Source of the DNA: Patescibacteria group bacterium
GTDB taxonomy: Bacteria > Patescibacteriota > Minisyncoccia > Phycocordibacterales > BOKC01
DNA: 64,000 bases
Direction of reading: 5' to 3'
NCBI GenBank assembly: GCA_038062955.1
Contig: JBBTWE010000001.1
Coordinates: forward strand, 554,271-618,270
The notes below the pieces were generated by a model. It ran no database searches. It saw only the letters and a program-made list of their open reading frames with translations, and had not been told where the DNA came from. The translations under genes were made by a program, and so were the position numbers. Shown one piece after another: positions 13,017 through 16,050 of the stretch. Each line of letters begins with the position of its first letter. Position 1 is the stretch's first letter.

Positions 13017-13102
13017 TAGAGTTCAACTTTTTATTTAATTCCGCAAGTCTTGCGGGAAGGTTGAATCTGTTCTTTTACAATCGAGATACGGAGTACTTTC
13101 TC

Positions 13103-14155
13103 ATGAAGCTACGTATTGTAGTAATCGGTCTTGGTAAGCGGGCGCGAGAGGATCATATCCCTGCCATCAAGCAAAGTCTCAACTTCGACCTGGTTGGTGT
13201 TTGTGATACCGACCCGAAGAAAGCGGAGGAAACGAGCGCGCAGTATGGCGTGGTCGGCTACACCTCACTTTCAGAATTAATTGGTGCGGAAGACTTCCAG
13301 GTTGCGCTTGTCACCATTCCGCATTATGCGTACTTGAATGTTGTAAGTACTTTAGTGGCAGCTGGCAAGCACATCATCAAGGAGAAACCATTCGCTACCA
13401 GTGTCGCTGAAGCAAAGCAGCTTCTCCACGTTCTGCGTAACGGACAAGTCTACCTAGGAGTGACAGTTCAGCGTCGGTTTAATCCCATCTATCGAACATT
13501 TCATCAGCTTAAGACTTATATTGGAAAGATCTATTCTATTGAAGGCGCGTACACGATGAATGTGGCGGCGCTGGATACGGGGTGGAGAGCGTCCAAGAAT
13601 CTCTCAGGCGGCGGAGCATTGGTGGATATGGGGTATCACTTCATTGACTTGTTGATCTGGTATTTCGGGATGCCTACATCTGTAACCGCGAGAATGACAC
13701 GGGGCAATCGTCCCGGTCAACAGTATGATGTGGAGGACACCGCCCATCTTTTGTTTGATTACCATCATTTGGAGTTTCAATACGACGAGAAGGTCGTTGG
13801 GAACTTCGTGATCTCCAGAGTGTATCCGGAGAAACAAGAGCGGGTGAGAGTGTTCGGTACAAACGGCGTTGTTGAAGTTTCGCGCGGCCTAATTCGTCGC
13901 ATGGACATCAACGGTAAAGAAATTGAACGACTGGAAAGGCAGGGGGGATGGCCGTCGGCTACGGTTGAGCAACTCGACCACTTTGCTGAACGGATCCGTC
14001 AATTCGTTCCAGGCCTACTTCCAGACTACACCGAGCATCTGCAACACGTCGCAGTTATCGAGGCAGCGTATCAGTCCGATCGTTCGGGTGCATCGTGCCA
14101 CCCGGATCATTTTCTGAAGTTAATCCAAGAACCCAAAGAGGAGAAACAGCTATGA
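13103..14155 (+). CDS. Gfo/Idh/MocA family NAD(P)-dependent oxidoreductase (WbpB-like sugar 3-dehydrogenase?)
   Basis: N-terminal Rossmann motif MKLRIVVIGLGKRA and EKP motif. GC about 50%. Start 13103 preferred over track start 13061. Confidence 0.75.
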   Translation: MKLRIVVIGLGKRAREDHIPAIKQSLNFDLVGVCDTDPKKAEETSAQYGVVGYTSLSELIGAEDFQVALVTIPHYAYLNVVSTLVAAGKHIIKEKPFATSVAEAKQLLHVLRNGQVYLGVTVQRRFNPIYRTFHQLKTYIGKIYSIEGAYTMNVAALDTGWRASKNLSGGGALVDMGYHFIDLLIWYFGMPTSVTARMTRGNRPGQQYDVEDTAHLLFDYHHLEFQYDEKVVGNFVISRVYPEKQERVRVFGTNGVVEVSRGLIRRMDINGKEIERLERQGGWPSATVEQLDHFAERIRQFVPGLLPDYTEHLQHVAVIEAAYQSDRSGASCHPDHFLKLIQEPKEEKQL

Positions 14156-15429
14156 ATCATCTTGCTATTTTCGGTGGTCCAAAAACTATCGAAACGAAGG
14201 GGCCCCATTTTGTGTGGCCCCGCATTACAGAAGATGTTGAGCAAGCGGTTGTTCGACAACTTCACACTACTGTCTCGATCTATGATCGATCAGGAGTGAT
14301 CAAAGAGTTTGAGACAACCTTCGCGGCTCATCACGGTCGGCGATATGCGTTACTTTCAAACTCCGGAACCAATGCCATCTATTCAATGTATGAAGGATTG
14401 GGATTGGGACATGGCGACGAAGTAATCTGTCCCGTCTACACATTCTTTGCAACGGTAAGCCCGCTTATGCATACGGGGGCAACACCAGTGTTTTGTGACT
14501 GTGGGCGTGATGGAAACATCAATCCTGCGGAGATCAAAACGCTCATTACCTCACGGACGAAAGCCGTGATGGTAACCCACATGTGGGGTCTCCCATGTGA
14601 TATGGATGCAATTGTATCCATATGTCGGGAGCACAACTTGAAGTTGCTGGAAGATTGTTCCCATGCGCACGGTGCAAAAGTCAACGGGAAACTTGTTGGC
14701 ACGTTTGGCGACGCGGCAGCGTGGAGTTTCCAGGCACAGAAAACGATTACGGGCGGTGAAGGTGGTATTATGCTTACCGACAACAAGGAAGTGTATTATC
14801 GCGCCTTATTGCAAGGACATTACAATAAGAGATGCAAGCAGGAGATACCAGCAGATAATCCGTTTTCAGCGTTTAGTACGACTGGATTTGGGTTGAAATT
14901 CCGTGCCCATCCCCTCGCAGTTGCTATGGCGCAAGAACAATTCTCTCACTTAGATGAGTGGCTTCTACAGCGACAAATCTATGCAGAGAGAATGACTGTA
15001 GCATTCAAACCGTTCCCCTTCCTGATAGTGCCAGAAGTTTCTAACAAGCAACCAGGCTGGTATGCCTACGTGATTCAGTTCGATGCTTCCCATTCCTATG
15101 GGATTGGCGTCGACCTGTTCACTAAAGCGGTATTAGCCGAAGGGCTTGTTGAGCTTGATCGGCCACGGTCCACCGGGATGCTTCATAAGTTGCCTCTGTT
15201 CGTCGAGCCCGAAAGTGTTTTGCCGAGATTGTATCCGTGTCCAACGGAACAAAAACGGCAAACATTTCCAATGGCGGAGCAGTTCTACGAGAACGCACTC
15301 AAACTACCGGTGTGGTCATTTCAGGATGAAGAGCAGATGGTCAATCTCTACGTTGATGGCATCGTAAAAGTAGCCTCAGTGGTGAGAGATAATCCGGCAA
15401 TTCTGCTTGCCTCGGAAACGAGCAAGTAG
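14152..15429 (+). CDS. DegT/DnrJ/EryC1/StrS family PLP-dependent sugar aminotransferase
   Basis: ATGA overlap with upstream stop (translational coupling), AGGAG RBS. Size and fold-type I aminotransferase motifs. Paired with a Gfo/Idh/MocA enzyme as in WbpB/WbpE. Confidence 0.75.
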   Translation: MNHLAIFGGPKTIETKGPHFVWPRITEDVEQAVVRQLHTTVSIYDRSGVIKEFETTFAAHHGRRYALLSNSGTNAIYSMYEGLGLGHGDEVICPVYTFFATVSPLMHTGATPVFCDCGRDGNINPAEIKTLITSRTKAVMVTHMWGLPCDMDAIVSICREHNLKLLEDCSHAHGAKVNGKLVGTFGDAAAWSFQAQKTITGGEGGIMLTDNKEVYYRALLQGHYNKRCKQEIPADNPFSAFSTTGFGLKFRAHPLAVAMAQEQFSHLDEWLLQRQIYAERMTVAFKPFPFLIVPEVSNKQPGWYAYVIQFDASHSYGIGVDLFTKAVLAEGLVELDRPRSTGMLHKLPLFVEPESVLPRLYPCPTEQKRQTFPMAEQFYENALKLPVWSFQDEEQMVNLYVDGIVKVASVVRDNPAILLASETSK

Positions 15430-15455
15430 TACAATGCAGGAAAAAAAGAAGACCC

Positions 15456-15917
15456 ATGCAATCACACATCGATCACAACACAATACAGAAGCTGGTCGCC
15501 GATTCCCAAAAGGACAATATAGTTAAGCTGGTAGTGGGAGCGGTGATCCGCAAGAACAACAAATTCTTGCTCCTTGAACGAGTTCCGACTGACTTCATGG
15601 GCGGACTCATCGAACTCCCGAGTGGCACTGTGGATACAGGTGAAGACCTGCTCACAGCACTTGCTCGGGAAGTACAAGAAGAGACAGGACTTGTTGTAAA
15701 TTCTGTTCTCTCGTATCTCGGTTTTTTCGATTACACGTCTGGTTCCGGCAAAAAGACAAGGCAGTTCAACTTCCTTGTCGAAACTGCGGGAGACAACGTC
15801 AAATTGAGTCCCTCTGAACACCAATCGTTTCACTTTGTGGCGCTTACAGATGAAGCATTCGCGATCCTCAATATCTCGGATGCTACTAAAGCGGTTCTCA
15901 AAACTGCTACGCAATAG
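15456..15917 (+). CDS. NUDIX hydrolase
   Basis: Nudix box GGLIELPSGTVDTGEDLLTALAREVQEETGL. Confidence 0.8.
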   Translation: MQSHIDHNTIQKLVADSQKDNIVKLVVGAVIRKNNKFLLLERVPTDFMGGLIELPSGTVDTGEDLLTALAREVQEETGLVVNSVLSYLGFFDYTSGSGKKTRQFNFLVETAGDNVKLSPSEHQSFHFVALTDEAFAILNISDATKAVLKTATQ

Positions 15918-15947
15918 TGACTTTTGGTTTTGTTAGGATCTCTCTCG

Positions 15948-16050
15948 AGCCCCAGCAGGTAAAACACCTCTGGGGCTTTTTATATCTCAGGAAACCAAGT
16001 GCGACTTTGCACCCATAGAGGTGTGAAAGAAAGTCGCTTTTTTACAGACA
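15948..16050 (+). terminator. Two tandem rho-independent terminators
   Basis: GCCCCAG-...-CTGGGGC then T5, followed by AAGTGCGACTTT...AAAGTCGC then T6. Confidence 0.65.

Follow-up and report, generated by a model that had tools for sequence, protein, structure and literature searches.

The 64,000-nucleotide stretch of the Patescibacteria group bacterium assembly GCA_038062955.1 analyzed here (contig JBBTWE010000001.1, positions 554,271 to 618,270 of the forward strand; hereafter the window) contains a cassette of three intact plus-strand genes which fills the gap between ndk and map, the last gene of the spc operon. These genes encode a Gfo/Idh/MocA-family NAD-dependent dehydrogenase (Gfo), a DegT/DnrJ/EryC1-family pyridoxal phosphate (PLP)-dependent aminotransferase (DegT) and a Nudix hydrolase (Table 1), and we consider that together they probably constitute an acquired, minimal nucleotide-tailoring operon of the Pur10/Pur4/Pur7 type (also AtaP10/P4/P7 and AdgB/C/D), which would yield a 3'-amino nucleoside monophosphate (3'-amino-NMP). 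Antibiotics of the puromycin type have a 3'-amino-3'-deoxy nucleotide as their toxic core. The catalytic motifs of all three proteins are present: the dehydrogenase has EKP at residue 94 as well as D175 and H179, the aminotransferase carries its PLP lysine K197 within SFQAQK, and the Nudix box GX5EX7REVXEEXGL is perfect at residues 57-79 of the Nudix protein. The Gfo reading frame is open from a TTG at 13061, and its likely start is the ATG at 13103 (MKLRIVVIGLG), in agreement with the N-termini of homologs. The Gfo stop and the DegT start share an ATGA at 14152-14155, indicative of translational coupling. A preliminary description of this DNA had likewise placed the three families in one cassette, which the Pfam matches agree with, and had noted the ATGA-overlapping pair; its strong AGGAG ribosome binding site on all three genes was overstated, as the site is canonical for DegT alone (GAGGAG), with GGAG preceding Gfo and only a weak AGGA/AAGAAG preceding Nudix.

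The cassette has a guanine-plus-cytosine (GC) content of 48.8% versus 38.3% in the remainder of the 64-kb window, with values of 50.0% for Gfo, 48.6% for DegT and 47.2% for Nudix, and the GC of third codon positions (GC3) is 50-54% in the cassette genes versus 31-36% in ndk, map, adk, secY and a beta-CASP gene. The contrast drawn in the preliminary description (approximately 50% against approximately 35%) therefore holds, with the background corrected to about 38%. Comparison with the closest homologous locus (L016) gave dN/dS values of 0.04, 0.08 and 0.13 for the three genes, at saturated dS. The cassette genes are foreign in composition yet clearly maintained, under purifying selection.

The functional assignment was based on two anchor operons. 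The first (L057) is the A201A-type sub-cluster of Marinactinospora thermotolerans DSM 45154, a species that makes A201A; its order is Nudix-Gfo-DegT-methyltransferase-GDP-mannose dehydratase-acyltransferase with an ATP-grasp gene, a content that fits A201A, and its Gfo is 64% identical to AtaP10 (Q8RJX1). The second (L157, 3965-8451), from plasmid pPstS2 of the symbiont of the stinkbug Plautia stali, was matched to adgB-E by architecture, since its order LysR-Gfo-DegT-Nudix-Inositol_P reproduces that of the Photorhabdus adgB-E genes; all of its genes are annotated "hypothetical protein". The window Gfo was 31% identical to its counterpart in L057 (127 bits) and 29% to that in L157 (102 bits), versus 74 bits for the best chain in the PDB. 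For DegT the corresponding values were 35% (226 bits, 414 aa) and 41% (318 bits, 394 aa) versus 160 bits, and for Nudix 30% (52 bits) and 36% (68.6 bits, E = 2e-20) versus 34 bits, the L157 values being the best similarities found for these two proteins. All three window proteins thus score higher against the anchors than against any solved structure, and homologs of the dehydrogenase, the adjoining aminotransferase and the Nudix hydrolase of the Pur10/Pur4/Pur7 module are all present in the cassette. Additionally, the window DegT aligns over its full length with the L057 DegT, including the long C-terminal part. In the reciprocal comparison the AtaP10 ortholog itself (the L057 Gfo) reached a best PDB score of 61 bits.

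Puromycin and A201A share a 3'-amino-3'-deoxyadenosine core, which Pur10, Pur4 and Pur7 assemble together with the Pur3 phosphatase (PMC11641026). The adgB-E genes of Photorhabdus luminescens are homologs of pur10, pur4, pur7 and pur3, beginning in the order dehydrogenase, aminotransferase, Nudix, and in E. coli they convert GTP into 3'-amino-3'-deoxyguanosine, the triphosphate of which acts as an RNA chain terminator and a GTP mimic (PMC9239236). The same three enzyme families act together in the puromycin (Streptomyces alboniger) and A201A pathways as occur in the window cassette, although in the A201A-type L057 the Nudix gene lies 5' of Gfo while in the window it follows DegT. With adgB-E the gene order is identical; both are compact, without peptide-tailoring genes, and both differ in GC from their hosts, the property by which the adg cluster was delimited (PMC9239236). 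The window cassette differs from the pur and ata clusters in having no Pur3 phosphatase, Pur5 methyltransferase, Pur6 aminoacyl ligase, N-acetyltransferase or exporter, in its low identity to them, and in residing in an ultra-small Patescibacteria genome rather than in an actinomycete; it differs from adg in having neither the fourth gene (a Pur3-type Inositol_P phosphatase) nor the MFS exporter. Relatives of the window cassette add a dTMP-kinase-like gene which is not among the pur and adg genes described in PMC11641026 and PMC9239236.

Gene neighborhoods were counted in 43 GTDB loci with this Gfo-DegT pair, with partners taken within 2.5 kb. In 39 of these 43 loci either a Nudix gene (25 loci) or a gene for a CYTH triphosphate-tunnel protein (15 loci) lay near the pair, and the CYTH-like gene stands in for Nudix throughout the Saccharibacteria/actinobacterial clade. 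The CYTH profile matches the triphosphate-tunnel enzyme NeuTTM (2fbl, 3typ; E = 1.6e-17), and the proteins are 174-188 aa long in L027-L048, L007/L008 and L034 (for example L033, 8601-9125). On a Bacillus thuringiensis plasmid (L156, NZ_CP126475.1) the place of Nudix is taken by a MazG nucleoside triphosphate (NTP) pyrophosphohydrolase. Because three unrelated kinds of (tri)phosphate hydrolase have been recruited to the same pair, an NTP substrate easily explains the arrangement and a nucleoside diphosphate (NDP)-sugar hardly does. The B. thuringiensis locus (1079-9826) encodes an SDR-type oxidoreductase, a DegT protein 38% identical to that of the window, an MFS protein, a 589-aa protein of unknown kind, MazG, a class I tRNA-ligase-like protein and a GNAT protein, and judged from its gene content it looks like an uncharacterized gene cluster of aminoacyl-aminonucleoside type.

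The dTMP-kinase-family gene travels with the cassette in at least eight distinct loci, its GC tracking that of the cassette, and it matches TIGR00041 at 80 bits against a cut-off of 83. It lies directly 5' and on the same strand in the closest relatives of the window (L015, L016, L019, L070 and L071) as well as in L006 and L021. Further neighbors include a cytidine/dCMP deaminase gene, and thymidine phosphorylase with GTP cyclohydrolase II. A homologous locus in Ktedonosporobacter (54% identical) is accompanied by an MFS gene, two ATP-grasp ligase genes, a Pur3-like Inositol_P phosphatase gene and two Nudix genes, and the Streptomyces plasmids pSGZL and pKVP1 carry an HTH-Gfo-DegT-Nudix unit with extra Nudix genes. 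On pSGZL (Streptomyces sp. 769; L013, 7409-15507) the unit and a second Nudix gene have as neighbors an alanine-tRNA ligase gene, also carried by the plasmid, and a type I-E CRISPR-Cas system; this extra alaS might be a resistance copy.

The principal alternative is an NDP-sugar pathway, in which Gfo would oxidize C3 of a UDP- or dTDP-sugar (following the WbpB/WlbA, GnnA and RifL models), a WbpE-, GnnB- or RifK-like DegT would make a 3-amino sugar for a surface glycan or kanosamine, and the Nudix protein would hydrolyze or proofread the sugar nucleotide. We regard this as unlikely. The WbpB/WbpE system (WlbA/WlbC, UDP-GlcNAcA 3-dehydrogenase/3-aminotransferase) shows the same pairing of a Gfo/Idh/MocA C3 dehydrogenase with DegT and the same chemistry, in which a nucleotide-linked sugar ring is oxidized at a secondary alcohol and then transaminated. 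Among solved structures the best matches are likewise enzymes acting at sugar C3, both dehydrogenases and an aminotransferase for UDP-sugars: Gfo matched 6nor, DgpA, WlbA and glucuronide 3-dehydrogenase at 62-74 bits (66-67 bits for WlbA, 3q2k/3q2i), and DegT matched the Psychrobacter UDP-sugar aminotransferase 7l7x at 160 bits. The best NCBIfam match for Gfo was the archaeal UDP-GlcNAc 3-dehydrogenase (82 bits, against a cut-off of 450), an 83%-identical homolog is annotated "putative UDP-kanosamine synthase oxidoreductase subunit", and the N-terminus of Pur10 itself resembles RifL (PMC11641026). Furthermore, the cassette lies among genes for GT2/GT4 glycosyltransferases and sugar epimerases in L001/L017, and glycosyltransferase genes are found near it in L072.

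The Ata/Adg-type scores nevertheless exceed those for WlbA, for WbpE (3nu7, 84.6 bits, rank approximately 42 among PDB matches), for RifK/AHBA synthase (1b9h, 128 bits) and for NtdA (81 bits), and neither Gfo nor DegT reached any NCBIfam equivalog cut-off. The pair has no consistent link to an acetyltransferase, glycosyltransferase, UDP-sugar 6-dehydrogenase or flippase, and most loci lack the glycosyltransferase context. CYTH or MazG enzymes, which act on triphosphates, can take the place of the third gene, and the remaining neighbors are nucleotide and nucleoside enzymes. The companions of WbpB/WbpE (UDP-GlcNAc 6-dehydrogenase, 3-N-acetyltransferase, 2-epimerase and glycosyltransferases) were found neither in nor beside the window cassette, which has no WbpA, WbpD or WbpI, and they were not consistent in the 43 loci; conversely, a Nudix, CYTH or MazG partner does not belong to that pathway. 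Membership in the WbpB/WbpE family was rejected on these scores, and the surface-sugar pathway of this type proposed in the preliminary description gives way, its scores being weaker and the partners being nucleotide enzymes (Nudix, CYTH, MazG, dTMP-kinase-like). In the RifL/RifK/RifM route to UDP-kanosamine (3-amino-5-hydroxybenzoic acid, AHBA, supply for rifamycin), an oxidoreductase and a DegT protein similarly act on a nucleotide-linked sugar before a hydrolase removes nucleotide or phosphate, but there the hydrolase is an HAD phosphatase and the kinase a sugar kinase, whereas here they are a Nudix protein and, in relatives, an NMP kinase. A RifK or NtdA type with HAD phosphatase was rejected in turn, as 128 and 81 bits fall below the Ata/Adg-type scores and the third gene is Nudix.

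Several observations weigh against the nucleotide-tailoring assignment as well. The sugar C3 enzymes at the head of the solved structures (DgpA, WlbA, glucuronide 3-dehydrogenase and 7l7x) and the glycosyltransferase and epimerase surroundings of L001/L017 (one relative) belong here, and a Nudix protein with an NMP kinase could serve an NDP-sugar route too. Identity to the Pur/Ata/Adg-type anchors is only 29-41%, and these anchors, an AtaP10 ortholog and an architecture-matched operon, stand in for authentic Pur10/Pur4/Pur7 and AdgB-E. In a neighbor-joining (NJ) tree, the node splitting nucleoside-linked Gfo proteins from the solved sugar 3-dehydrogenases had 52% bootstrap support; deep-node supports were computed as unrooted bipartitions, and the deep nodes stay weak. 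A phmmer search of the 64-kb window with two Inositol_P queries from related loci found no phosphatase of the Pur3/AdgE type, the cluster contains no exporter or self-resistance gene (Pur8, AdgA MFS, PAC), the strain-variable segment around it holds nothing else, and no remnants of the dTMP-kinase-like gene were found 5' of the window Gfo, where the kinase is lacking. The version in the window, without the kinase, phosphatase and exporter of its relatives and of the known clusters, would accordingly be either minimal, reliant on host functions, or incomplete.

Horizontal acquisition of the cassette, as the preliminary description had suggested, is strongly supported by sequence comparisons. 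Beyond the deviating composition of the cassette, a close relative (L075) has other genes in its place, and other genomes carry it at other positions with differing flanks. The three genes recur together and in the same order in unrelated contexts: among glycosyltransferase genes in L001, by Fur/ZnuABC in L002 and by ilv genes in L006. In comparison with the closest homologous loci, the cassette genes alone are common to the window, with no flanking gene in common, and no sampled locus exceeded 77% nucleotide identity. Across loci the GC of the cassette departs from that of its flanks in both directions, being higher in L016 (51% versus 41%), L019 (49% versus 39.5%) and L070 (53.5% versus 31%) and lower in L002 (41% versus 47.7%), L006 (42% versus 47.6%) and L007 (49% versus 58.5%). 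L070 and L071 share an identical 4.18-kb module (dTMP-kinase-like, Gfo, DegT, Nudix) in differing contexts, bracketed by 85-nt perfect inverted repeats (L070 8007-8091 and 11869-11953; L071 module 7572-11748); both contigs end inside the 85-nt repeat, and the module resembles a mobile unit, transposon-like or prone to recombination, that has no transposase of its own. In L072 (8668-11952) and L073 (502-3786) the three-gene cassette lies exactly between tRNA-Thr and tRNA-Lys, a typical setting for island insertion.

That the cassette is instead native, with its GC reflecting amino-acid or expression constraints and L075 having simply lost it, is very unlikely. No integrase or transposase adjoins the cassette in the window, the closest homologs are likewise from Patescibacteria, and in the closest clade several genomes have a cassette GC of 49-56%, which might reflect a gene-intrinsic bias. 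Such a bias is at odds with a GC3 15-20 points above that of neighboring genes and with the lower-than-flank GC in L002, L006 and L007; moreover, flanks differ in every genome, the identical L070/L071 module has two contexts and 85-nt terminal inverted repeats, and the L075 site holds different genes of host-like GC and no empty deletion scar.

As to the source, homologs at 66-88% identity are mostly from Patescibacteria records or metagenome contigs, and the window Gfo falls inside a clade of Patescibacteria (Paceibacterota, Kaiserbacteria and unclassified metagenome-assembled genomes, MAGs) with 99-100% bootstrap support in the NJ tree, in which cassette GC ranges from 41 to 56%. Streptomyces homologs are 31-41% identical. 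The high-GC donor envisaged earlier is therefore not borne out, since the nearest homologs are Patescibacteria and those of high-GC actinomycetes do not exceed 41% identity. Mycobacteroides saopaulense and an Actinomycetes MAG fall within the Saccharibacteria-centered CYTH clade with 86-97% bootstrap support, a hint of gene transfer between TM7 epibionts and the actinobacteria that host them.

The relative L075, a metagenome contig, is collinear with the window on both sides of the cassette, with flanks 82-88% identical at the nucleotide level and a Map protein that is 93% identical. The segment without counterpart (Table 1) runs from the first codons of ndk to the last codons of map, and the C-terminus of Map reads PIVVTIL* in the window versus PIVVTLIS* in L075. 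In place of the cassette, the 2.44-kb map-ndk gap of L075 encodes two unrelated hypothetical secreted proteins (238 and 360 aa) at host-like GC. These two secreted or membrane hypothetical proteins are encoded at L075 8943-11025, and one is rich in repeated RYPPG/HNNFPG motifs. Sequence comparison identifies the cassette as a strain-variable replacement at a hotspot, which the map/ndk junction seems to be. The genes infA, rpmJ, rpsM, rpsK, rpsD, rpoA and rplQ, which the preliminary description had reported as missing after map, were not found anywhere in the 64-kb window by phmmer with E. coli queries (best E = 0.3), while the controls S12, L14 and S19 were detected in it at E = 1e-24 to 1e-44. 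Their absence had also been tied to the arrival of the cassette, and this does not hold: the cassette-free L075 has the same map-ndk junction without infA to rplQ, and the break of the spc/alpha operons is therefore older than the cassette.

Most improbable of all is an aminocyclitol or free amino sugar pathway, with an inositol- or glucose-6-phosphate-type dehydrogenase, a scyllo-inosose-type aminotransferase (StsC/BtrS, NtdC/NtdA) and an incidental Nudix gene, for while DegT scores 122-133 bits against 2-deoxy-scyllo-inosose aminotransferases and resembles them in its length of approximately 425 aa, and Gfo matches the myo-inositol 2-dehydrogenase IolG at 78 bits, these scores lie under those for Ata/Adg-type proteins, the Nudix gene is kept with the pair across phyla, shares the cassette GC and is under purifying selection, and a cyclitol synthase, an HAD phosphatase (NtdB) and a glycosyltransferase are all missing. 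An origin in phage nucleotide modification was also considered and dropped, the best Gfo homologs in the phage collection being at most 26.5% identical. PADLOC gave no match for Gfo and DegT and a generic match of Nudix to the candidate PDC-S07, which leaves a known defense system unsupported.

Returning to the nucleotide-tailoring operon, we infer its mechanism from homology and gene neighborhood, and its substrate, product and biological role in the same way. Gfo would use NAD+ to oxidize the ribose 3'-OH of an NTP, ATP or GTP by analogy, to the 3'-keto-NTP (Pur10/AtaP10/AdgB-like), the coupled DegT would transaminate the 3'-keto group to give the 3'-amino-3'-deoxy-NTP (Pur4/AtaP4/AdgC-like), and the Nudix hydrolase would remove pyrophosphate to leave the 3'-amino-3'-deoxy-NMP (Pur7/AtaP7/AdgD-like). 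By analogy with Pur7 and AdgD, this last step could serve both in processing and in shielding the RNA polymerase of the producer from a chain-terminating NTP analog; whether the second step precedes the third has yet to be settled for the characterized systems too. The free aminonucleoside could then be released by a general phosphatase, and a candidate role for it is that of an antimetabolite directed at hosts, competitors or phage. We offer only tentatively the wider proposal that this is a mobile module common to Patescibacteria/Saccharibacteria episymbionts and scattered bacteria, composed of a Gfo-DegT core, a swappable NTP phosphohydrolase of the Nudix, CYTH or MazG kind and, in many cases, a dTMP-kinase-like NMP kinase, which would turn scavenged nucleotides into a 3'-amino-3'-deoxy chain terminator or NTP mimic used as a weapon on hosts, competitors or phage. 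Given the thymidylate-kinase, cytidine-deaminase and thymidine-phosphorylase neighbors, some versions of the module may make a pyrimidine analog; we know of no natural product of that kind.

The surroundings of the cassette add candidate control and boundary elements (Table 1). A tandem array of GATTAGAGG, found by Tandem Repeats Finder, abuts the ndk start codon and matches the tandem direct repeats that had been described upstream, and the two plus-strand hairpin-plus-U-tract elements downstream bear out the double terminators described there. The terminators were confirmed by RNA folding, a simple scanner having missed both owing to loop size, and neither hairpin has a U tract on the minus strand. 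The left arm of the 18-nt inverted repeat bracketing the cassette overlaps a -35-like hexamer, TTGACA (12982-12987), and the right arm sits exactly on the breakpoint of homology with L075; the repeat is suggestive, with approximately 0.1-0.5 such pairs expected by chance per 3.5 kb on a rough estimate. Otherwise the window shows no mobility gene or tRNA close to the cassette.

The 5' leader of the window cassette, which contains the box GTTCTTTTACAATCGA, folds at -19.5 kcal/mol (z = -2.7). The box, in the form GTTCTTT(C/T)ACAA(T/C)C, is conserved 5' of Gfo in eight loci (the window, L015, L016, L019, L070, L072, L017 and L024), placed between a small hairpin and the Shine-Dalgarno sequence, and in most loci a promoter-like TTTACA...TAAGGT pair precedes it. 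Rfam gave no match in the cassette region at E up to 1 and none near the cassette in a window-wide scan, so that a known riboswitch was dropped as an explanation. RNAalifold found no consensus structure in the leaders, in an alignment weakened by one mis-chosen row. The box might act as an operator or in translational control.

Table 1. Features of the cassette and its surroundings, with positions in the 64-kb window
Feature	Position	Strand	Length or detail	Basis
ndk, nucleoside-diphosphate kinase	12162-12821	-	flank, outside cassette	Pfam NDK, E = 3.4e-37
Strain-variable segment, no L075 counterpart	12818-16086			blastn of L075 vs window; homology stops at 16086 and resumes at 12817
Short tandem repeat GATTAGAGG	12829-12862		3.8 copies, 9-nt unit	Tandem Repeats Finder, score 54
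Inverted repeat, left arm	12983-13000		18 nt, 16/18 complementary	Repeat search
5' leader	13041-13093	+	hairpin 13041-13055; box GTTCTTTTACAATCGA 13069-13084; Shine-Dalgarno GGAG 13090-13093	
Gfo/Idh/MocA NAD-dependent dehydrogenase	13103-14155	+	350 aa	Pfam PF01408/PF02894/PF22725
DegT/DnrJ/EryC1-family PLP aminotransferase	14152-15429	+	425 aa	Pfam PF01041, E = 4.6e-72
Nudix hydrolase	15456-15917	+	153 aa	Pfam PF00293
Intrinsic terminator 1	15947-15983	+	GC-rich hairpin, then UUUUUA	Centroid -21.8 kcal/mol, z = -2.6
Intrinsic terminator 2	16001-16043	+	hairpin, then UUUUUU	Fold -16.2 kcal/mol, z = -2.2
Inverted repeat, right arm	16072-16089		18 nt; overlaps map stop and last codons	Repeat search
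map, methionine aminopeptidase	16076-16846	-	flank	Pfam Peptidase_M24; 93% identical in L075

The flanking genes lie outside the cassette. The ndk gene has host-like composition (GC 38.8%, GC3 32%) and is conserved in L075; its product is 219 aa long, with an NDK match in two parts (residues 6-55 and 92-181) implying an insertion of approximately 35 aa, and with a lysine-rich C-terminal tail, both of which are kept in L075. On the other side, map ends the minus-strand str-S10-spc ribosomal cluster (S12 to secY-adk-map), on which the cassette converges. Elsewhere in the window, smpB (1226-1663) is directly followed by the tmRNA gene (1731-2127; tag peptide ANNLVAKAKSIVSPYFGNEKLAFVYA), an ordinary arrangement. 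GC content is also raised at 8001-9000 (49%), upstream of and into infC, and at 2001-6000 (43-47%); an open reading frame at 7813-8430 and several in the 2.8-5.4 kb region had no Pfam match, and no Rfam family accounts for the peak at 8 kb.

Bacteria of the Candidate Phyla Radiation (CPR, Patescibacteria) have very small genomes, lack de novo nucleotide synthesis and live attached to host cells. Little is known of the means by which they injure or control other cells or compete with them, and our full-text literature search found no paper linking aminonucleoside biosynthesis with CPR bacteria. For annotation, the present locus counsels caution, in that a Gfo/Idh/MocA and DegT pair is not automatically a surface-sugar pathway. 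If our assignment is true, the biosynthetic logic of actinomycetes and of Photorhabdus and Xenorhabdus would extend to phyla well outside the known producers, in a minimal three-gene form without tailoring genes and with new partners, namely a dTMP-kinase-like kinase and CYTH or MazG proteins replacing Nudix. Were the product used as a weapon, as in the wider proposal, no earlier antimetabolite pathway would, as far as we could find, have been assigned to ultra-small CPR bacteria. An operon for a 3'-aminonucleotide that is conserved, mobile and under strong selection would provide a chemical effector for CPR, with the same warhead chemistry that underlies puromycin, A201A and 3'-amino-3'-deoxyguanosine, compounds that act by RNA chain termination or by mimicry of ATP or GTP.

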